Assembly (NCBI GenBank): GCA_026702745.1
Contig: JAPPBT010000018.1
Location: 32,259-96,258 of the forward strand
Source: Gemmatimonadota bacterium
GTDB taxonomy: Bacteria > JAAXHH01
Direction of reading: 5' to 3'
DNA length: 64,000 bases
The translations under genes were made by a program, and so were the position numbers. The notes under the pieces were generated by a model, which had not been told where the DNA came from, made no database searches, and was given only the letters and a program-made list of their open reading frames with translations. This document shows positions 22,761-63,559 of the stretch, piece after piece. The first letter of the stretch is position 1, and every line of letters starts with the position of its first letter.

Positions 22761-23321
22761 CTATGGACTGAACACAATAGACAAGGTGATCGGCATCCAC
22801 TTGTGCTTCACGTCCGTCATTGCGTGATTGTATCGCGCATCGAGAGCCACGCCAATCGACGGATTTATGGGAATATGAACACCGCCACCTATCGTAAAAC
22901 TTAAAGCACTCTCGGAGTTACTGATAGATACGCCTCCTCTGGAAATTTCCGCTTTAGCACGTGTCAATCCTATTCCTCCATGCCCATATACACTTACGGT
23001 GGAAGAAGAGGAATGCAGCATAACTCCGAGGTTCGCTCCGGTAAGATTCGTTTTTCCACTCACCCCGGGGGCAAGCACGTCTTCTTCTGGCTTGTATTGG
23101 CTATAATGACCTTCCAATACCGCATGCAAGCGCTGATAAACCGGCAAGGATACTCCGCCGCGAATCGCCGGTCCATTCTTTGCTCCCTCGGCATCTATGG
23201 GAAGACTCAGTCCGCCTCCTACAATAAACGATGGCGTAGTCTCCTGGGCATGAACGGTTTTCTGAGCGGATATCGACACGAGCAAAAACGCAGCCAGCAG
23301 GTAAACTGCTACTTTTCGCAT
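22761..23321 (-). CDS. Outer-membrane beta-barrel protein (OmpA-like barrel / OmpW-like), low-GC gene
   Basis: Start at M38 after AAGGAG SD. Signal peptide MRKVAVYLLAAFLLVSISAQKTVHAQ; alternating hydrophobic beta-strand pattern; C-terminal aromatic end (...TLSIVFSP). Confidence 0.6.
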   Translation of the reverse strand: MRKVAVYLLAAFLLVSISAQKTVHAQETTPSFIVGGGLSLPIDAEGAKNGPAIRGGVSLPVYQRLHAVLEGHYSQYKPEEDVLAPGVSGKTNLTGANLGVMLHSSSSTVSVYGHGGIGLTRAKAEISRGGVSISNSESALSFTIGGGVHIPINPSIGVALDARYNHAMTDVKHKWMPITLSIVFSP

Positions 23322-23442
23322 GATACTGCTCCTTATAGGAAAAGGATACAGAAAGTACCGTTGTAACAAGGATATTTCATTAAATGATAATACACTTCGA
23401 CGTGTCAATGTTTTTCTATGGGAATATTCCATTAATTAGCAC

Positions 23443-32954: not shown

Positions 32955-33121
32955 CAGGTCACGGGGTCGCGGGCTTTGGCGGGCGCAGGCCCGGTATCAC
33001 GGGGTCACGAGGCCTGGGAGGCGTCGGCCCCGGAGTCACGGAGTCCCGGCGGGCGCCGATCCCAAAGTCACGGGGTCCCGGCGGGCGCCGATCCCAAAGT
33101 CACGGAGTCCCGGCGGGCGCC
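32955..33121. repeat. Tandem ~32-nt minisatellite (gtcacggRgtcccggcgggcgccgatcccaaa), 2.7 clean copies plus degenerate upstream copies
   Basis: Clean copies at 33035-33066, 33067-33098 and 33099-33121 overlap the last codons of the PP-loop ATPase gene. Confidence 0.8.
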
Positions 33122-33948
33122 GCCTTCCGTTTCTTCAGCACCTCGTTCATACTCCCGGTGCGGTATCCTTCCAGGTCCAGCGTGACGTAGTCGTAGCCGA
33201 TTTCCTTCAAGTACGCCGAGATCTCGTCGTGGTGTTCGACGACCTTCGGGAGGTCGGCGGGCTCCGTCTCGATGCGGGCCATGTTCCGGTGGTGCCGCAC
33301 CCGGAACTGCCTCAATCCCAAGCCGCGGATGAAGGCTTCGGCCCGGCCGACCTGTTCGAGCGCTTCGATCGTGATGGGGTCGCCGTAAGGAAAGCGGGAC
33401 GACAGGCAGGCCAGGGACGGCTTGTCCGCCGTGGGCAGGCCGAGTTTCTCCGACAGCGCGCGGACGTCGGCCTTGGTGAACCCGGCGTCCTTCAACGGGC
33501 TGCGCACGCCGTGTTCCCGGATGGCCAGCATGCCTGGGCGGAAGTCGCTTATGTCGTCCAGGATGCTGCCTTCGCAGATGAAAGCGGCGCCTTCTTCCCG
33601 GGCGATCACCTCGAGGCGCGAATACAATTCATCCCGGCAGAAATAACACCTTCGCGGGTTGTTCTGCATGTACTCCGCGTTGTGGATTTCCTCCGTGTCC
33701 ACGTAGCGGTGGCGGGCGCCCATCCATTCGGCCAGTTCGGCGGCCTCGTTCTTCTCCTCCTCGGGCAGCGATTCGGACACGCCGGTTACGCCCAGGGCGC
33801 GGTCCTCCAGCACGTCGGAGGCCACCTTCAGCAGCAGCGTACTGTCCACGCCGGCGGAGAAAGCCACCAGGACGCTGCCCATGGCGCGCAGATCATCCTG
33901 GAGCGATTGGTACTTTTCGTCCAGCGTGGAGGCCTTGTTCCTGGTCAC
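33100..33948 (-). CDS. PP-loop ATP pyrophosphatase family protein (LarE-like sacrificial sulfur transferase / TIGR00268 type)
   Basis: SAGVDST PP-loop (SGGxDS variant) and conserved C-terminal Cys region (LACLSSRF). Confidence 0.65.
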   Translation of the reverse strand: MTRNKASTLDEKYQSLQDDLRAMGSVLVAFSAGVDSTLLLKVASDVLEDRALGVTGVSESLPEEEKNEAAELAEWMGARHRYVDTEEIHNAEYMQNNPRRCYFCRDELYSRLEVIAREEGAAFICEGSILDDISDFRPGMLAIREHGVRSPLKDAGFTKADVRALSEKLGLPTADKPSLACLSSRFPYGDPITIEALEQVGRAEAFIRGLGLRQFRVRHHRNMARIETEPADLPKVVEHHDEISAYLKEIGYDYVTLDLEGYRTGSMNEVLKKRKAAPAGTP

Positions 33949-37869: not shown

Positions 37870-39036
37870 TCAGGTCAAGAAGGCTTGCATAATCTGTTTC
37901 TTCGCACTGTAACCTCGTCTGGTTCGTTCGACAAGATCCATTTTCCTCAGATAATTCAAGTCTCGACTGATCATTTTCTGTGAAGCATTCGCGTATTCCC
38001 TGGCGACCCTGGGGCTGACTTCACCGATCTGCGACCTGGGAACGGGTTGATCCTGTTCCGAGAGAGCCAGGACCAGATTCCTACGACGTTTCGCAGCTGC
38101 ACCGGTCATACCCTGGAATTGCTCATGCACGAAATTGATCCAGGATATTTGAAGATGTTGACTTCTGATCGATGCAAGCTGTTCTGTTAGGCCTTCAGAG
38201 AAACCTCGAATCGCATATTCCATGAATTGGTCCATTTTCCCTCCAGACTGTGATGCCCTGTCAAGTTGTCTGGCATATTCCGTTCTGGTCTGGTTATAGA
38301 AATTGCTGGGAAGCAATGTCGCAGGGATTGGAATATCCGCTTCAATGAGTATTCTGAACTCGATCAGCCTGGCTGTTCTTCCGTTCCCGTCTCCAAAAGG
38401 ATGAATCCAAGCAAAGTAAAGGTGGGCGGCGATCGCTTTGACTAAGCCAATCGCGACTCTACTGTCTTCGTTTGTGTCGTTGTTAGACGAATTCAACCAT
38501 TTGCATAGTTGTTCAAGCAAGTAATTGCAATCTTCCGCCTGAACCGCGCGATACCTGCCCACACCAACGGAGTGCTTACGTATCTCGCCTGGTACCGTTT
38601 CCTCGTCCGGCAACTCGAGACCTTTTAACACCACCTTGTTATGCCGGCATATTTCCTTTGTTGACCACGGTGGAAGTTTACTTCGACTACGACGTGACAA
38701 CATTCTTCTTATTTCCGCCAGGATATTGTCGATCTCCTGTTTCAAGTACTCCTTTGACTCCGGAAGTCTCAGTTTTCCTTCCATATGCGCACGTACATCT
38801 TCTTCCGAAAGGGTGTTGCCTTCGATCGCGGTTGTACCAAGTACGCCCCTGGCCAGGTACACCTGGTACAGTTCATGCGCCGTCTGTCTCATCAACGGAA
38901 TTCCTGTCAGTTGCTCGCATTTAGCCTTGATCTCACCAAGTAACATCCAGATCCTTGGTGGGGCGTGAACCAAATAGTCCGTGTCGAAGCTTCGCAGCCA
39001 CGGATGGGTAGTTTCAAATCGTCTCATTGTTGACAC
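37870..39036 (-). CDS. Fic-family protein (AMPylase-type, class II with N-terminal inhibitory motif) plus C-terminal winged-helix, low-GC
   Basis: Canonical Fic motif HPFGDGNGRTARL; inhibitory (S/T)xxxE(G/N) motif TTAIEGN near the N-terminus; gene is markedly AT-richer than its flanks. Confidence 0.85.
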   Translation of the reverse strand: MSTMRRFETTHPWLRSFDTDYLVHAPPRIWMLLGEIKAKCEQLTGIPLMRQTAHELYQVYLARGVLGTTAIEGNTLSEEDVRAHMEGKLRLPESKEYLKQEIDNILAEIRRMLSRRSRSKLPPWSTKEICRHNKVVLKGLELPDEETVPGEIRKHSVGVGRYRAVQAEDCNYLLEQLCKWLNSSNNDTNEDSRVAIGLVKAIAAHLYFAWIHPFGDGNGRTARLIEFRILIEADIPIPATLLPSNFYNQTRTEYARQLDRASQSGGKMDQFMEYAIRGFSEGLTEQLASIRSQHLQISWINFVHEQFQGMTGAAAKRRRNLVLALSEQDQPVPRSQIGEVSPRVAREYANASQKMISRDLNYLRKMDLVERTRRGYSAKKQIMQAFLT

Positions 39037-43162: not shown

Positions 43163-43195
43163 TGACAATATATTAAAACTGCTTACAAACAATAT

Positions 43196-43229
43196 AGCCC
43201 GGCTAGCCCGGCTAGCCCGGCTAGCCCGG
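43196..43229. repeat. Microsatellite (GCCCGGCTA)x3.8
   Basis: Perfect 9-mer tandem copies in the intergenic region. Confidence 0.85.
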
Positions 43230-43279
43230 CAAGGTTGTGCATCGCGCAGTCAGAAGGACCGGCCGGACACCCTGCGCCG

Positions 43280-44471: not shown

Positions 44472-47099
44472 ATGCTCAACCACGGATACCTGAAATATCA
44501 CGGATTCGAAACGCGACTTAATGCCTGTACGTCTCGACGTCTTTTCACGACTGCAGGTCTATTCACCACTGCGGGTCTTCTCATGAGCCCGGGCAACCAC
44601 TTCATAACAAGCGTACTGCGCCACAAGCCTTATCTGGCGGCGACCGCGGTTCTTACGGCAGCCGCGGCGGCGATGACGCAGATGCCCCTGGTGGATGACC
44701 TCGGTTTCGAGTTCGCCTTCTTCACCGCCGCCATCGCCACCTTCGCCACGGGCGTGATGACCGTTCATCTCGTGAGCGGCTGGCGAAGGGGCAGTTTGCG
44801 AGGGGACGGCCAGCGAGGGGATGATCGGCGAGGGGACAAACCGCGCAACACCCGCCATTCGGCGCTGCTCGCCCTGCTATTCGGGCTTTGCCTCTCGACA
44901 CTCCTGCTGCCGATGGCTGTGATGTTCGTCAAGAGTTGGATCAGCGGGTTCTGCAACGTACCCGAGGGTTTAGCGTTCTACTTGCTGCTTCCCGGCATCA
45001 GCGTCCTGTGGGCCACCGCCGTCGCGTTGATCTGCACGCTGGCCACGGAGCGAAGACGGCACGCCACGCTCCTTTTTCTCGGCGTCATGTTCGTTTCCCT
45101 CGGCATCAGCTTGTTTCGCCTGGCCACCGAGCCGCCTGTTTTCGCCTACAACCCGATCATCGGGTATTTCCCCGGACCGATTTACGATGAAGTGGTGGTC
45201 ATCACCTCGACGCTGCTTGCGGCGCGAGCGATCGTGCTCGTCAGCGTCCTTGCGATGGTCACCGGCCTGTGCGTCTGTTTCGATCCGTCGGCCCGTAAGA
45301 TCCAACTCTCGCTGCTATGGAAGATCCGAGGCGGAAGTCCGGACGGTGGTCTGGACGGCGTGAGCGCTGAGAGCGGCGGGAGCGCTGAGAGCGGCGGGAG
45401 CGCTGCGAACGGCGGGAGCGCTGCGAACGGCGGAAGCCCTGCGAACGCCGGGGGCGCCGTCAGTGCCGCGACCGGCATGACCATGCGGGTGCTGTTCCTG
45501 GTTTCGGTGGCTGTGCTGGCGGTGGCCTACGTCTACCGGGCGCCCCTGGGCATCGTGATCGATCGGGCGCATATCCAGCAGACCCTGGGGGGCCACCGGC
45601 AGACGACCCACTTCGACATCTACTACGATTCAAACACCATAACGGCCTGGAACATGGACCTGATTGCCCGGGAACACGAATACCAGCTCGACCGGGTCAT
45701 CACCTACCTGGATGTACCGGCCCCTCAGGCACGCATCGCTTCATACATCTACGGCAACGCGGACCAGAAGAAACGGCTCATGGGCGCCCGGTATACGTCC
45801 ATCGAACGCCCCGGGGCGGATGAGATGCACCTCAACAACGCGTCCTTTCCCCATCCCGTCCTGAAACATGAGCTGGTGCACGTCATGTCCGCCGCTTTCG
45901 GGAACGCGCTGTTCGGAGGCAGCTACTGGATCGGTTTCCACGAGGGTCTGGCCGAGGCGGTGGACTGGCAGGACGACCCCATGAATCCCCACGAGTGGAG
46001 CCGGGCCATGCGCGAACTCGGCCTTGCCCCTCCCGTGGAGAACCTGCTGAGCATGACGGGATTCTGGACGGCCGCATCGTCGCGCAGCTACACGTTGTGC
46101 GGATCTTTCGTCCGGTTCCTGATCGATCGCTATGGCTTGCCCGCGTTCAAGCAGGCCTTCCCCGACGGCGCGGTCGAGACGTCCTACGGCCGGACGACGG
46201 CGGAGCTCATCGCCGAGTGGGAGACCTTCGTGGACGGCATCACGCTTCGAGAGGACCAGCTCCGAATCGCCCGCCAGCGGTTCATTCGTCCCGCCATCTT
46301 CCGACGGCACTGTCCTCACGAAGTGGCCGCGCTGAACGACCGGGCATGGCAGGCCTACAATGCACAACGCTACTGGGACGCCGTACGTGATTTCGACCGC
46401 GCGCTCGAACTGGAACCCGAGAACCCATCGGCCCTTAGGGGTTTGCTGTACGGGATCTACCGGCAGGGGAACTACGAAAGGATCGAGACGGTCGCCCAGC
46501 GAATCGAACGACCGGACCAGACCGTCGGGTTGCTGGCGGACGCCCAACTGGTCCGTGGAGATACGGCGTGGAAGACCGGGAGGATCGACGATGCCAGGCG
46601 CAGTTACAAAGCAGTCGTGGACCTGCAGGCGTCGGAAGCCATGTCGCGCGCCGCGTCCATCCGGTTGGAGGTGCTCGACCGGGAGTCGATCCGGGATACG
46701 ATCATGACCTACCTGACCGCCGTGACCGGCCACTGGCGCCTGGTCCTGTCCGTCCGGGACTCGGGTGATCTCGCGCCTGATTACGGGACGGGCCACTACC
46801 TCCTGGGCCGCTGGCTGTTCCGCTCAGGTTCCTATGAACAGGCGCTCGAGTACCTGTCGAAAGCGGAGACGATCGGACTTCCGGACGAGGTCGTACGGCA
46901 GGAATGTCTGCGCCTGGAAGCCATGTCACAATTCTACCTGGAGCGCTACGATCAGTCGGCCGAAGCCTTTGGGCGCATGGCGGCGCTAGTGGGTTCGGGA
47001 AGTGTGGCCAGGACGGCGGAAGCCTGGATAGACCGCTGTCAGTGGTATCAGAATAACGGATCAGACGGGCCGGACCGCCAGGCACGTTGGGCGCGTTAG
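44472..47099 (+). CDS. Polytopic membrane protein with HExxH zinc-metallopeptidase-like motif and C-terminal TPR repeats
   Basis: ~330-aa multi-TM N-terminus; HELVHVMS (HExxH); TPR-like C-terminus. Internal in-frame coding repeat SAESGGSAESGGSAANGGSAANGGSPANAGG from 18-nt DNA repeats (~45355-45440). Start uncertain. Confidence 0.6.
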   Translation: MLNHGYLKYHGFETRLNACTSRRLFTTAGLFTTAGLLMSPGNHFITSVLRHKPYLAATAVLTAAAAAMTQMPLVDDLGFEFAFFTAAIATFATGVMTVHLVSGWRRGSLRGDGQRGDDRRGDKPRNTRHSALLALLFGLCLSTLLLPMAVMFVKSWISGFCNVPEGLAFYLLLPGISVLWATAVALICTLATERRRHATLLFLGVMFVSLGISLFRLATEPPVFAYNPIIGYFPGPIYDEVVVITSTLLAARAIVLVSVLAMVTGLCVCFDPSARKIQLSLLWKIRGGSPDGGLDGVSAESGGSAESGGSAANGGSAANGGSPANAGGAVSAATGMTMRVLFLVSVAVLAVAYVYRAPLGIVIDRAHIQQTLGGHRQTTHFDIYYDSNTITAWNMDLIAREHEYQLDRVITYLDVPAPQARIASYIYGNADQKKRLMGARYTSIERPGADEMHLNNASFPHPVLKHELVHVMSAAFGNALFGGSYWIGFHEGLAEAVDWQDDPMNPHEWSRAMRELGLAPPVENLLSMTGFWTAASSRSYTLCGSFVRFLIDRYGLPAFKQAFPDGAVETSYGRTTAELIAEWETFVDGITLREDQLRIARQRFIRPAIFRRHCPHEVAALNDRAWQAYNAQRYWDAVRDFDRALELEPENPSALRGLLYGIYRQGNYERIETVAQRIERPDQTVGLLADAQLVRGDTAWKTGRIDDARRSYKAVVDLQASEAMSRAASIRLEVLDRESIRDTIMTYLTAVTGHWRLVLSVRDSGDLAPDYGTGHYLLGRWLFRSGSYEQALEYLSKAETIGLPDEVVRQECLRLEAMSQFYLERYDQSAEAFGRMAALVGSGSVARTAEAWIDRCQWYQNNGSDGPDRQARWAR

Positions 47100-49240: not shown

Positions 49241-49260
49241 CACGAACTTCCCTCTACGTG

Positions 49261-49338
49261 CTGCATCTGCGGGCTGCATCTGCGTGCTGCGTCTGCGTGC
49301 TGCGTCTGCGCGCTGCGTCAGCGTGCCGCATCCGCAAG
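49261..49338. repeat. Minisatellite, 13-nt unit (CTGCRTCTGCGTG) x6
   Basis: Six tandem 13-mers between the SpoIID-like and anmK genes; the unit length is not a multiple of three, so it is non-coding. Confidence 0.8.
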
Positions 49339-58883: not shown

Positions 58884-59672
58884 TCAGGCCGCGCTCCATC
58901 CTCCGTCGACCATCAACACCGATCCGGTCGTAAAAGAAGACTGGTCTGAAGCCAGGAACAGCACGGCTTGCGCCACCTCTTCCGGCGCTCCGAAGCGGTC
59001 CATGGGGTGCTTTTTCTTCAGCCGTTCGTACATGGCGGCATGGGCCTGCACGGACTCGGTCATGGGGGTATCCACCCAGGCCGGCGCCACGGCGTTGACG
59101 CGAATACCCCGGTCCGCGTATTCCACGGCGAGGATGCGCGTGAGCTGATCGAGCCCGGCCTTCGACGTGCCGTACGCCGCCGACCGCTTCATGCCCGACT
59201 GTCCGAGGACCGAGCTGACATTGACGATACTTCCGGCCTCCCGGGAAATCATGCCGGGCAGGACGGTCCGGATCATGCGGAACGCGCCGGAGAGGTTGGT
59301 GGCTATGGTCTGGTCCCAGAGCTCGTCCGTGGTCTCGTCGGCGTCCATCAACGTCGCCGTCCCGGCGTTATTCACCAGGACGTCGATCCGGCCGAAGGCG
59401 GCAATCGTCTCGTCGGCCACACGCTGGCAATCCGCGGTAACGGATACGTCACCGGAAACCTGGATCGCCCGGCCGCCCATTTCCGTGATTTTCGCGACCA
59501 CCTCTTCGAGCGGTGCCTCGCGCCGGCCCGTGACGCAGACGGCCGCGCCTTCCTGGGCAAAAAGCCTCGCCGTAGCGGCCCCGATCCCCGTTCCGCCGCC
59601 CGTGATGAGCGCGACACGCTCTTCCAGTTTCAATGCCGGTTCTCCCAAAGTGCGTTCTCGGTCAGCGGCCAT
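58884..59672 (-). CDS. SDR-family short-chain dehydrogenase/reductase
   Basis: TGGGTGIG cofactor motif, NNAG, and catalytic S...YGTSK. Confidence 0.85.
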   Translation of the reverse strand: MAADRERTLGEPALKLEERVALITGGGTGIGAATARLFAQEGAAVCVTGRREAPLEEVVAKITEMGGRAIQVSGDVSVTADCQRVADETIAAFGRIDVLVNNAGTATLMDADETTDELWDQTIATNLSGAFRMIRTVLPGMISREAGSIVNVSSVLGQSGMKRSAAYGTSKAGLDQLTRILAVEYADRGIRVNAVAPAWVDTPMTESVQAHAAMYERLKKKHPMDRFGAPEEVAQAVLFLASDQSSFTTGSVLMVDGGWSAA

Positions 59673-59755
59673 CGGTCAGCGGCCATCGGTCAGCGGCCAT
59701 CAGTCAGCGGCCATCGGTCAGCGGCCATTGATCAGCGGCCATCGGTCAGCGGGCT
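59658..59755. repeat. Minisatellite, 14-nt unit (minus-strand ATGGCCGCTGACCG) x7, spanning the stop of the PhyH gene and the start codon of the SDR gene
   Basis: Seven tandem copies (two slightly degenerate); each unit contains both ATG and TGA. Confidence 0.85.
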
Positions 59756-60687: not shown

Positions 60688-61380
60688 TTACAACACCCCG
60701 GCCACACGGAAGAAGTTTTCCAGGATCTTCCGGCCGTGGGGATAGACGTCGACGTAGTATTCCGGGTGGAACTGCGTGCCGTACAGGGGCCGCTCCCGGT
60801 GCCTGATCGCCTGGATCCGGCAATTCTCGTTCGAGGCGATGAGATCGAAATCCGGCGGCACGGTCTTCATCTCCGCGTAGTGCGACTGCCGGACGACCAC
60901 CGGATCCGGCAGCTCGTCGAACAGCGGATCGGCCTTCACCGGACGCACCGGGTAGAAGCCTTCTTCGCAGAAGTAGCCGAGCGCATCAGGATTGGGATCG
61001 AGCACGTCGGGTTCGCCGGGCCGCAGCGGCCGCATCATCTCGTCTTCGAGTTTCGTCAGGTTGCGAAAGCCGTCATTGAACATGAACCCCATGAGTTGGT
61101 GGCTGGCGCACAGTCCCAGGGTGGGCACGTCCGCCATGGCGTTCAGCGTATCTTCGAAGCCGTAGAACGTCTCCGGTTTGAAATGCTGGAAGAAGGTCCC
61201 GCAACCGCTGAGCAGCATGGCCCGGGGCTTCAGTGGCTCGACGATCTCCGGCGTCATCTGCTCCTGGTGCAGTATCAGGCACGGTTGCCCGGAGATCTCT
61301 TCCAGCCGCCGCTTCAGCCGGAAATCCCGGCCGTCTTTATTGTAGGATTCCAGCGTCCCGATGCGAATCCAGATGATCAA
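60688..61380 (-). CDS. Class I glutamine amidotransferase-like protein (GATase1 / gamma-glutamyl hydrolase-like)
   Basis: Nucleophile elbow GLCASHQ and downstream FHPE (His/Glu of the triad). Confidence 0.65.
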   Translation of the reverse strand: MIIWIRIGTLESYNKDGRDFRLKRRLEEISGQPCLILHQEQMTPEIVEPLKPRAMLLSGCGTFFQHFKPETFYGFEDTLNAMADVPTLGLCASHQLMGFMFNDGFRNLTKLEDEMMRPLRPGEPDVLDPNPDALGYFCEEGFYPVRPVKADPLFDELPDPVVVRQSHYAEMKTVPPDFDLIASNENCRIQAIRHRERPLYGTQFHPEYYVDVYPHGRKILENFFRVAGVL

Positions 61381-61508
61381 TTAGTCATCCGTCCTGTTTG
61401 GAAACCACACACGCACATTTCAAAGAGAGTCAACCTTCTATTCCTAGACATCTTCCTCTTTTCTTGACTCGAGATACCCGATCAGCCCTTCAAAGATTTT
61501 GCGTAGGG

Positions 61509-61919
61509 TTATTTCTTGAGAATCTTCAAAATCCTATCCAGTGTATCCCCTGTATGGACTAACGATTCTTTGTTAGCGGATGCAATTTCACTAACAAGAT
61601 CAAGTTTCTCTTTGATCCCTTCCGAGTTGGTTTTCAGGTCCGCCACGTTGGTTTTCAGGTCCGCCACGTTGGTTTTCAGGTCCGCCACGTTGGTTTTCAG
61701 GTCCGCCACGTTGGTTTTCAGGTCCGCCACGTTGGTTTTCAGGTCCGCCACGTTGGTTTTCAGGTCCGCCACGTTGGTTTCGATTCCAACCAATCGGTTG
61801 TCGATTTTGAGGATGTGATTCAATATCGAACTCGAAGTATCTTCAAGACTGGATACCCTGCGTTCCAACCTGCTCATTCGACGTTTCATATCGGGAGTAT
61901 CATCTATTACAGTCATCAT
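61509..61919 (-). CDS. Coiled-coil repeat protein with 7-8 perfect TNVADLK heptads (XhlA-like, phage-associated?), low-GC
   Basis: 136-aa ORF; N-terminal coiled coil (MSRLERRVSSLEDT...), then identical heptads encoded by a perfect 21-bp tandem array. Confidence 0.5.
   Translation of the reverse strand: MMTVIDDTPDMKRRMSRLERRVSSLEDTSSSILNHILKIDNRLVGIETNVADLKTNVADLKTNVADLKTNVADLKTNVADLKTNVADLKTNVADLKTNSEGIKEKLDLVSEIASANKESLVHTGDTLDRILKILKK
61626..61793. repeat. Perfect 21-bp tandem repeat x8 (gttggttttcaggtccgccac), coding (in-frame heptad TNVADLK)
   Basis: Eight identical units plus a partial ninth. Confidence 0.9.
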
Positions 61920-62249
61920 CTGGTTCCTAACCTATCCGGGGTGGTTGTTTCGAGGGATTCGTCACAGAACGAGAGCGACCCGTAAGTCGTCGTTTCAACT
62001 GTTGTATCCATCAAGCCACCTGGTATGGGTGACTACATGAATCAAGTCACATCGTTGGCAAATTGTCAACGCCGATTTTGTTGGCATCTCGTCAACACTC
62101 GTGTATCCATGCCTTATCACCTCCTATGCCATCAGATCGAAGTTTCCAGGCCGTTTTTTATCCCAATGTTCACCGTTCGATATTTCCCCCTTTCTTTTCA
62201 TAACCGGACTCGCAGGTCCATGTTACTGATCCTGGGATATCCGCAATTT

Positions 62250-62510
62250 TCACTCTACCCGTCCCAGGTGCGTATTCATGTCGTGTTTCTCTTCCCGCAT
62301 CGAGGATAACTCGGTACGTATAGCAGCCATCCCGGTACGCATTTCCGAGAAGCCTGAACGGACTTCATCCCTGAATTCCTGGTTCAGCTGATTGACAAAC
62401 GCAAAAACGGTAATGACCAGGACCCCTGCGGCGGTTATGATCTGGGCGCCGAAGGCCCAATGATCACGGGATATCATGGTCATGTCTGACTCCTTCCAAA
62501 GTTCATCCAA
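62250..62510 (-). CDS. Small membrane protein with TM helix followed by coiled coil (hypothetical)
   Basis: 86-aa ORF; TM segment AFGAQIITAAGVLVITVFAFV; lies in the low-GC islet. Confidence 0.35.
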   Translation of the reverse strand: MDELWKESDMTMISRDHWAFGAQIITAAGVLVITVFAFVNQLNQEFRDEVRSGFSEMRTGMAAIRTELSSMREEKHDMNTHLGRVE

Positions 62511-62620
62511 ATAAGCCTACCGCCGCTGATCTCACGCTGATATCTTAAGAGTCGCAAATCGAGTTTCCAATCTCGTAGATAAAACACAGATCAGAACCAT
62601 CATGTGAAAAGGACTACGAA

Positions 62621-63559
62621 ATGATCGTCATGGCTACGAACAACGGCGACGTGGGCATCCGGCAGGCGGTGGCCGCGCTCAGGGAAGGCAAGACCGCGGT
62701 GGACGCCATCGAGATCGGCATCCGGGAGGTGGAGGTGCACCGTCCCGACCGCAGCGTCGGCCTGCACGGCTATCCGAATATCCTCGGCTATCCCCAGCTG
62801 GACGCCCTCATCATGGACGGCCGCACGCGCGACGTGGGGGCCGTGGGCGCGGTGACGGGCTACGATCATCCGATCTCCATCGCACGCTGCGTCATGGAGA
62901 AGCTGATCCACGTCTTTCTCGTCGCCGACGGCGCGGAGCGGTTCGCCAGCGAAATGGGTTTCGAGAAGAGCTCCTTCGTGGACCCCGAGATGCCCGAGAT
63001 CTACGCGAAGCACGTGGTCGAACAACTCGGCATCGACGACCCCGAGGAACTCCAGCACACCAAAGAACTGTGGAAGCTGAGCCACCTGGCCGTCGATCCG
63101 CAGAAGGCCGGGGGCACGACCAACTTCATCGCGCAGGACGGCAACGGCGACATCTGCGTGGGCGTGAGCACGAGCGGCTGGGGATGGAAGTACCCGGGCC
63201 GCCTGGGTGATTCGCCGGTCATCAGCGCGGGCGGATTCGCGGACAACCGCTACGGCGCCGCGGCCTGCACGGGCACGGGAGAGCTGGCCATCCGGACCGG
63301 CGCGGCCCGGAACGTGGTGACCTACATGAAGATGGGCATGTCGCTGGAAGAGGCGACGGCCGAGGGGCTTCGGGACATGAACGAACTGGACTCCCAGCGC
63401 GTGGGCGGCGTGCAGATCATCTCTCTGGACTCCAGCGGCGCCCACATGGCGGGGACCACGAGCGACCGGAAGGGCAGCCACGTCTACATGACGGCCGACA
63501 TGGACGAGCCCGAGTTCGTCGAAGGCATTTCCGTGCCGTACGAAGGCGCGAGCCAGTAG
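62621..63559 (+). CDS. Isoaspartyl peptidase/L-asparaginase (Ntn-hydrolase, glycosylasparaginase family)
   Basis: Family blocks GAVGAVTGYDHP..., autoproteolysis-site-like GGTTNF, and TGTGE. Confidence 0.8.
   Translation: MIVMATNNGDVGIRQAVAALREGKTAVDAIEIGIREVEVHRPDRSVGLHGYPNILGYPQLDALIMDGRTRDVGAVGAVTGYDHPISIARCVMEKLIHVFLVADGAERFASEMGFEKSSFVDPEMPEIYAKHVVEQLGIDDPEELQHTKELWKLSHLAVDPQKAGGTTNFIAQDGNGDICVGVSTSGWGWKYPGRLGDSPVISAGGFADNRYGAAACTGTGELAIRTGAARNVVTYMKMGMSLEEATAEGLRDMNELDSQRVGGVQIISLDSSGAHMAGTTSDRKGSHVYMTADMDEPEFVEGISVPYEGASQ

Follow-up and report, generated by a model that had tools for sequence, protein, structure and literature searches.

An AT-rich accessory segment encoding two predicted alpha-helical rod proteins, one with an in-frame heptad array, in a Gemmatimonadota bacterium

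We describe two small genes, here called p1 and p2, in an AT-rich islet of the Gemmatimonadota bacterium assembly GCA_026702745.1. The islet lies at positions 61381-62620 of a 64,000-nucleotide (nt) stretch of contig JAPPBT010000018.1 (positions 32,259 to 96,258, forward strand), which was analyzed as a whole and is called the window; coordinates without a locus label are those of the window (Table 1). It fills exactly the gap that separates the starts of two genes, one of the GATase family and the other a divergent asparaginase_2 gene; its other neighbors are PhyH and SDR genes. The islet has a GC content of 0.473, compared with 0.624 in the remainder of the window, and is among the three lowest-GC 1.2-kb stretches of the 64 kb. 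GC content at third codon positions (GC3) is likewise atypical, at 0.44 for p1 without its repeat array and 0.63 for p2, compared with 0.80-0.90 for four neighboring genes. The low GC content that a preliminary description of this DNA had pointed out is thus borne out.

The p1 protein consists of a 47-amino acid (aa) N-terminal part, seven TNVADLK heptads encoded by a tandem array, and a 40-aa C-terminal module, and the motif AGGAA lies 4 nt before its first ATG. AlphaFold2 models it as a single continuous helix spanning residues 8-135, with a mean predicted local distance difference test score (pLDDT) of 95.4. The heptad register in which the V of TNVADLK occupies position a and the L position d is unbroken over the whole length of the protein; hydrophobic residues fill 34 of the 39 a/d positions, and all alternative registers do much worse. 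We take p1 to be a soluble coiled coil of ~18 heptads in which the array sits in exact heptad register, so that whole heptads are added in phase. At the standard helix rise, each heptad measures ~1.04 nm and the p1 rod ~19 nm.

The array, which has the highest score of the 24 that Tandem Repeats Finder (TRF) reports in the window, contains the exact 21-mer at seven positions. Its sense-strand unit ACCAACGTGGCGGACCTGAAA encodes TNVADLK, and in the protein the seven complete heptads are followed by TN. The preliminary description had counted eight units; the array is real, perfect and in frame, and comprises 7.4 copies and seven heptads. The copy number differs among orthologs: one unit at locus L011 (a 94-aa protein, reading TNVADQK) and in a partial NCBI protein (P0080, locus L068), 6.5 perfect units at locus L004 (129 aa), and 7.4 in the window. 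The L004 array lies on a 3.84-Mb contig that presumably derives from long reads, and its count should therefore be reliable. Thus, identical units of a length divisible by three stand head to tail, and their number differs among orthologous alleles, as in an in-frame variable-number tandem repeat (VNTR). Protein length can vary as had been proposed, and repeat number is not invariant among relatives. In the single-copy allele, ACTAACGTGG...ACCAACTTGG, the near-repeat AC(T/C)AAC(G/T)TGG brackets exactly 21 nt; we infer from the sequence that this flanking near-repeat is a microhomology that could seed the first duplication. The units are perfectly identical, which speaks for a recent expansion.

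How many copies the window really has is a separate question. A second assembly of the same genome is available as locus L002 (ENA scaffold ROBB21-1_SAMN13943211), and a third sequence as L003 (a Logan contig, k = 31, from SRR10996929); the GATase protein is identical on both. To one side of the array, L002 and the window are 100% identical across 11,030 nt, and to the other side they are 99.87% identical across 2,312 nt. The L002 array measures 92 nt, that is, 4.4 copies with a 115-aa product, against 155 nt in the window, while L003 ends 30 nt into the array. This could mean that the copy number, including the difference between 4.4 and 7.4, is an assembly artifact, and that the true array is at least as long as that of the window, or longer, and unreadable from short reads. 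Both lengths are congruent to 8 modulo 21, and both equal k + ((L - k) mod 21), where L is the true length, as expected of the minimal traversal of a de Bruijn graph: k of 135-155 (including 141) would yield 155, and k of 72-92 (including 77 and 79) would yield 92. Loci L062, L063, and L064 behave in the same way at another 21-nt array. This arithmetic is nevertheless an inference, and it would apply only if the window and L002 were assembled at such k values. A study of metagenome-assembled genomes (MAGs) from coral-reef demosponges used metaSPAdes 3.9 for its own assemblies (PMC8163846), and the default k values of that program predict neither 155 nor 92; the study code ROBB21 may refer to this paper. 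We regard an artifactual count in the window as an even call. The array itself is no artifact, because 6.5 perfect copies stand on the 3.84-Mb contig of L004, and the single-copy alleles of two other genomes show, together with L004 and the window, that length variation between genomes is real. The safe statement is that 7.4 copies is a lower bound and that the exact number here is not secure. The very recent expansion put forward in the preliminary description is therefore reasonable as far as the identity of the units goes, while the count attached to it is unreliable. What does hold is that p1 carries an in-frame VNTR in a fibrous protein, a real and fairly ordinary hypervariable accessory gene.

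The window and L002 differ at just three mismatched positions (62966, 62972, and 62976, against L002 8468-8478), which cluster in an 11-nt stretch of the asparaginase gene; in L002 this gene is called as two pieces (115 and 189 aa). Either strain variation or misassembly at this spot could account for them. Exact-protein look-ups with p1, p2, and the asparaginase returned no identical record.

Repeat-collapsed p1 has only two matches among 5.8 billion proteins, the single-copy ortholog P0080 and an 82-aa protein, P0016 (L001 9992-10249). P0016 has a different N-terminus and no array, and has in common with p1 only the C-terminal 40 residues (88% DNA identity over 127 nt); p1 is thus a mosaic. 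The L001 island that holds P0016 is low in GC and also contains genes for transposases of the IS1595 and Mutator types and for an N6/N4 methyltransferase, as well as an HNH gene and the type I restriction-modification gene HsdM. Full-length p1 has 53 matches, which share only T(D/N)VA(D/G)LK-type heptads, and a JGI metagenome scan with the DNA of the p1 C-terminal module yielded no match. Compared with p1, the orthologs of L004 and L011 show few changes, with ratios of nonsynonymous to synonymous substitution rates (dN/dS) of 0.13-1.0.

The second gene had been described beforehand as encoding a small transmembrane (TM) and coiled-coil protein, and p2 fits that description. Its N-terminal part contains the hydrophobic segment AFGAQIITAAGVLVITVFAFV, after which comes a charged, helical stretch, and AAGGAG (62490-62495) stands 6 nt upstream of its ATG. 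AlphaFold2 returns one helix over residues 2-74 (pLDDT 77). We therefore predict that p2 is a bitopic protein whose N-terminal TM helix is continuous with a coiled coil. Close relatives of p2 number 26 (phmmer E values of 1e-17 to 1e-37; 58-92% identity), and all of the named ones are proteins of Gemmatimonadota MAGs. They are 79-90 aa long and end in ...NTRLGRVEGYLRIS...; AFGAQIITAAGVLVITVFAFV is invariant or nearly so across 22 sequences, and whole-heptad indels separate the family members. In the window copy, TGA (62250-62252) replaces GGA, which places the stop nine codons earlier than in all 86-aa orthologs. The tail accordingly reads HDMNTHLGRVE before the stop, and the G-x-L-R of the family motif hDMNxRLGRVEGxLR is lost. 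Further changes at conserved positions are E51G, I66K, and R72H, the last affecting a near-invariant Arg.

A p2 profile has 281 matches at E <= 1e-3 among 1.84 billion representative proteins. The small proteins among them share one architecture: an N-terminal TM helix, 0 to ~10 seven-residue repeats (for example, LREDIGV x4 or SQVRGE(L/I) x3), and a tail of the form hDMNxRLGRVEGxL. In other genomes, obtained from metagenomes of the same kind, two to four p2 paralogs form tandem arrays with GC3 of 0.58-0.67, against 0.81-0.90 in neighboring genes, and a JGI metagenome scan with the p2 profile found three loci, which repeat the context seen at L062. Judged by its sequence, p2 belongs to a wider, uncharacterized candidate family of TM-heptad-NxRLGRVEGxL proteins (P0083, P0087-P0090, P0095, P0100, P0117, P0120, P0123, P0148, and P0206-P0208). 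It has in common with them the N-terminal TM helix, the whole-heptad indels, the HDMNT(R/H)LGRVE motif, and the occurrence in low-GC3 clusters of small genes. It is unlike them in ending right after RVE. As this family has no Pfam or NCBIfam model, it is a grouping rather than an annotation.

The arrays of p2-superfamily paralogs at L065-L067 (3666-4823) and L070/L071 (4285-5243) consist of two to four genes ~30-90 nt apart, with heptad-scale indels between them. Downstream of such an array lies a SocA/Panacea-domain gene in L066, and in L065/L067 a gene whose coiled-coil product has a TM segment at its C-terminus. Elsewhere, a partner gene beside a p2 relative carries a 21-nt unit encoding VETRIDR, with 3.6 copies in L062 (4487-4561) and 2.6 in L063 (4487-4540), which are two assemblies of one genome; the corresponding Logan contig ends inside the gene. 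A TM/coiled-coil partner built of ~11-residue repeats is 97 aa long in one genome and 138 aa in a related one (L072 1718-2011 and L074 2199-2615).

The p2-p1 spacer is ~91% identical among the window, L004, and L011, a level similar to that of the flanking genes. L012 shares it up to ~61990 and then carries different cargo. Within the spacer lie two 17-nt direct repeats, which the preliminary description had presented as a regulator binding site of the form GTTGGCA-N4-GTCAAC; both exist, 10 nt away from where they had been placed. They are the only two copies of this motif in the 64 kb. When two mismatches are allowed, three strand-hits are found against 0.31 expected, and none of 100 shuffles reaches three. 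Both 17-mers are kept in L002, L004, L011, and L012, and of the 68 loci compared only these four, which have this spacer, contain them. Substitutions fall mostly in the central 3-nt spacer (A/T in copy 1, T/C in copy 2), and the only half-site change occurs in L012. Half-sites that are kept around a varying center are the pattern expected of operators bound by dimeric proteins. Thus, the conservation in all four spacer-sharing genomes supports the 17-mers as a candidate regulator site. The TTGACA hexamer of copy 2 would be reasonable as an overlapping -35 box and operator.

An RNAalifold analysis of the 330-nt spacer gave no covariation support, with only three near-identical sequences in the alignment. 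The sole terminator-like hairpin is 17-mer copy 2 itself on the antisense strand, and we judge it non-functional. In addition, a 14-nt direct repeat (61998-62011 and 62097-62110; sense ATGGATACA-NN-AGT) brackets the pair of 17-mers. One of its copies abuts 17-mer copy 1, and the other lies just before the point at which the L012 cargo diverges. The 14-nt repeat may belong to a larger repeated unit with a role in regulation or recombination.

We next place the islet in its lineage. Among GTDB species genomes, the closest relatives of the GATase protein come from MAGs labeled Gemmatimonadota/Gemmatimonadetes or 'Candidatus Latescibacterota', many of which are complete chromosomes of 3.7-3.9 Mb. 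Isolate names such as SB0665, IRC1, APA, and Plut indicate that several appear to derive from sponge or coral metagenomes. We compared the asparaginase-GATase spacer in 24 related genomes. In ~19 of them it is 233-490 nt long and cannot be aligned to the islet, even beside both start codons; these non-carriers include complete chromosomes. The window, L004, and L011 have p2, the spacer, and p1 in this gap. In L012, p2 and the spacer with both 17-mers are present, and two other proteins then take the place of p1, one of 76 aa (TM/coiled-coil) and one of 115 aa. L016 has p2 only, and the distant L027 has unrelated genes. The leader that separates p2 from the asparaginase gene can be aligned among islet carriers only and is unrelated to the short intergenic DNA of non-carriers. 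Because carriers and non-carriers differ across the whole gap, the intergenic region behaves as a replaceable slot: the entire region is replaced, not interrupted. L012 is a case of cassette-like cargo exchange. Its cargo in the p1 slot (L012 5384-5943), in which the 115-aa protein has no family match, joins the shared spacer ~70 nt past the second 17-mer.

A neighbor-joining tree of the two flanking genes unites L004, L011, L012, and the window as a single subclade next to L005-L007, which are non-carriers, and places L016 elsewhere. Within the subclade, identity is 93-94% for p2, ~91% for the spacer, 96-98% for p1, and 91-96% for the flanking genes. The islet has thus diverged about as much as its flanks, which argues for inheritance from a common ancestor followed by loss or replacement, not for repeated recent import. 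Its absence from most close relatives and its atypical GC3 mark it as an accessory segment.

The preliminary description had also suggested that the islet may be a mobile remnant. We looked at its borders for terminal inverted repeats, a target duplication, a tRNA gene, and an integrase or recombinase, and none was seen; this claim is not supported. On the same grounds we rejected an insertion sequence, a miniature inverted-repeat transposable element, and a genomic island. We also rejected, by inspection, an integron attC site: GTTGACA/GTTGGCA and TGCCAAC do not fit GTTRRRY/RYYYAAC, and no integrase or recombinase is encoded within 5 kb.

We lean toward the reading that the islet is a lineage-restricted accessory cassette encoding two alpha-helical rod proteins, in which p1 pairs or oligomerizes, is tuned in length, and is under operator control. 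That is, the cassette would have replaced the whole asparaginase-GATase intergenic region in one subclade of sponge-associated Gemmatimonadota-type bacteria. The array would have arisen from a single unit bracketed by the near-repeat AC(T/C)AAC(G/T)TGG and would grow and shrink by slipped-strand mispairing. Each unit gained would add one heptad, or ~1 nm, with the register kept. The p1 protein would form oligomers, or bind the p2 coiled coil at the membrane, or both, and array length would set the length of the rod. Furthermore, p1 would have a promoter to itself within the conserved spacer, where the two palindromic 17-mers may serve as operators of a dimeric regulator encoded elsewhere. In favor of this reading, loci of p2 relatives in other genomes carry partner genes with their own 21-nt arrays or with length variation.

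Several observations weigh against it. The counts of 4.4 and 7.4 copies come from what looks like a single genome, and assembly rather than biology may explain why they differ. The window p2 is both truncated and substituted at near-invariant sites, so this copy, or the pair as a whole, may be decaying here, although p1 beside it is expanded, and the membrane topology of p2 is ambiguous from charge. The dN/dS estimates rest on 6-20 substitutions. On the regulatory side, a consensus promoter scan called no sigma-70 promoter at the 17-mers, the open reading frames (ORFs) of the islet include no regulator gene, and a search of the islet against Rfam gave nothing at E <= 1, which speaks against a settled regulatory reading. 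Finally, searches of Pfam, PHROG, NCBIfam, PADLOC, and PDB with p1, p2, and their relatives returned only generic coiled-coil matches below cutoff. DUF2730 (PF10805) reached 22.1 bits for p1, short of its cutoff of 24.9, and at best E = 0.093 among 22 p2 members. Homology searches and structure predictions for both small proteins thus support helices, coiled coils, and a family for p2, with no named family reaching threshold.

Table 1. Features of the islet and its two flanking genes, in window coordinates.
Feature	Coordinates	Strand	Description
GATase-family gene	60688-61380	minus	PF00117, E 4.5e-18
p1 stop to GATase start	61381-61508		mosaic among carriers, identity 62-85% with indels
p1	61509-61919	minus	136-aa ORF; soluble coiled coil without TM segment or signal peptide
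Tandem array	61626-61780	minus	TRF period 21, 7.4 copies, 100% matches, score 310
p2-p1 spacer	61920-62249	minus	330 nt, non-coding, conserved
17-mer copy 2	62054-62070	minus	sense GTTGACA-ATT-TGCCAAC; imperfect 7-3-7 palindrome; perfect TTGACA hexamer
17-mer copy 1	62080-62096	minus	sense GTTGACG-AGA-TGCCAAC; imperfect 7-3-7 palindrome; 26 nt start-to-start from copy 2
p2	62250-62483	minus	77 aa from ATG; ORF listing gives 86 aa from upstream TTG
Leader region p2-asparaginase	62484-62620		divergent; part of replaced segment
asparaginase_2 gene	62621-63559	plus	PF01112, E 4.6e-61

A different function was considered for the same two genes. They might form a small membrane-acting toxin, abortive-infection, or exclusion module, in which TM peptides of the p2 type disturb the membrane under the modulating influence of the soluble coiled coil, and in which the rapid turnover of repeats and paralogs reflects an arms race. 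Variable slots, low GC3 in several unrelated hosts, and tandem arrays of paralogs are all compatible with such a role, as are the Panacea (SocA) domain gene that adjoins p2 relatives in L065-L066 and the presence of the p1 C-terminal module in the restriction-modification and transposase island of L001. L065-L066 also include a sequence that we take, from reading by eye and with no family search, to be HicB-like. We nevertheless consider this role unlikely. Among PADLOC models, p1 has weak matches to LmuB, JetC, and DruC, confined to their coiled-coil segments, and none matches the p2 relatives; there is no match to a toxin or antitoxin family; and the contexts are heterogeneous, with mostly housekeeping genes as neighbors.

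It is very improbable that the p1 and p2 ORFs are spurious, that is, AT-rich and repeat-prone intergenic DNA that happens to be open. The genome does have many short intergenic tandem arrays, p1 is nearly without homologs, and p2 is truncated here. Chance is nevertheless hard to reconcile with a heptad periodicity that is unbroken over 128 residues, Shine-Dalgarno motifs at both ORFs, frames kept in three to five genomes with dN below dS in most pairs, and a p2 profile that finds 281 proteins of the same architecture.

Least credible of all is that the islet is what remains of a phage lysis cassette, p1 being XhlA-like and p2 holin-like, despite weak PHROG 'hemolysin' matches (phrog_937, 1.5e-5, and phrog_1193, 3.7e-4, among 150 coiled-coil hits) and the fact that small TM proteins are typical of such cassettes, since the divergence of the islet keeps pace with that of the chromosome, p1 scores 11.2 bits against the XhlA model PF10779 (gathering threshold 34.7) and has no C-terminal TM segment, no endolysin, holin, or other phage gene is nearby, and neither INPHARED nor IMG/VR holds a match.

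On these results we reject the XhlA-like N-terminus and the phage origin that had been proposed for the islet, and the lysis module is largely refuted. The XhlA score was obtained with repeat-collapsed p1 (E 0.43), and the model falls outside the top 25 for the full-length protein. Rather than a C-terminal TM segment, p1 has one amphipathic helix (residues 8-135) without any hydrophobic stretch. The genes around the islet encode GATase, asparaginase, PhyH, and SDR proteins, with no amidase among them. The INPHARED search was a tblastn with p1 against 50,697 phage records, and the IMG/VR scan was made with the p2 profile. XhlA haemolysin of PBSX-type prophage lysis cassettes is thus like p1 only in being short and having a coiled-coil segment; p1 is far below the cutoff of its hidden Markov model, and its context lacks phage genes, a holin, and an amidase.

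Comparison with other known systems gives likenesses of architecture and mechanism. The repeat blocks of streptococcal M proteins and the BclA protein of Bacillus anthracis are in-frame VNTRs in which repeat number sets filament length. Like them, p1 has perfect in-frame units in a rod-forming protein, copy numbers that vary among strains, probable slippage, and a change in length in place of an on/off switch. What sets p1 apart is its very small size (94-136 aa), the lack of a signal peptide, an anchor, and a wall-sorting motif, a unit of exactly one heptad, and its occurrence in an uncultured sponge symbiont. In architecture only, the single N-terminal TM helix of p2 followed by a coiled coil resembles FtsB, FtsL, and DivIC or the i-spanins; p2 differs from these in having no above-threshold sequence relation to them, no division or lysis context, and no lipoprotein partner.

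Other parts of the window have features of a similar kind. A second low-GC islet (37.9-39.4 kb; GC ~0.47-0.49, GC3 0.52) encodes a 388-aa protein (37870-39036, minus strand), whose translation contains HPFGDGNGRTAR, presumably a Fic-type motif. This islet is flanked by cupin-like and threonine-dehydratase-like genes and looks like a further accessory insertion. A third low-GC stretch (~22.4-23.4 kb, GC 0.45-0.50), adjoining nrdR, has a 223-aa ORF (22761-23432, minus strand) with a signal-peptide-like N-terminus and a beta-strand-type residue pattern, which may encode a small outer-membrane beta-barrel. Short tandem arrays are frequent in the window (59658-59752, 49253-49332, 45355-45457, 33034-33122, and 43195-43230); one example, between the SDR and PhyH genes, has 6.8 copies of a 14-nt unit. 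Arrays also occur in the asparaginase-GATase spacer of relatives, such as an 11-nt unit present three times in L010. A general tendency toward tandem duplication appears to mark this lineage.

Provided that both proteins, p1 and p2, are expressed, this locus would be a compact natural length ruler made of coiled coil, adjustable by one heptad at a time, in an uncultured symbiont of animals. A bolder proposal, to which we give little chance, is that p2-type anchored coiled coils and partner rods such as p1 constitute an undescribed modular system that is shared horizontally among phylogenetically different sponge symbionts. In such a system, slippage and paralog turnover would retune the length of a membrane stalk, for example in a surface or envelope structure that faces the host or phages. 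Perfect arrays with a length near that of the reads are mis-sized or broken by short-read metagenome assemblers, and repeat counts in MAGs should therefore not be read as biology. This caution is one of the two most useful outcomes of the analysis; the other is the definition of the TM-heptad-RLGRVEG family. The locus flags an unannotated family of small proteins with a TM anchor, variable heptads, and an RLGRVEG tail, which forms tandem arrays with atypical codon usage in several of the genomes covered by this analysis, including sponge-associated ones.

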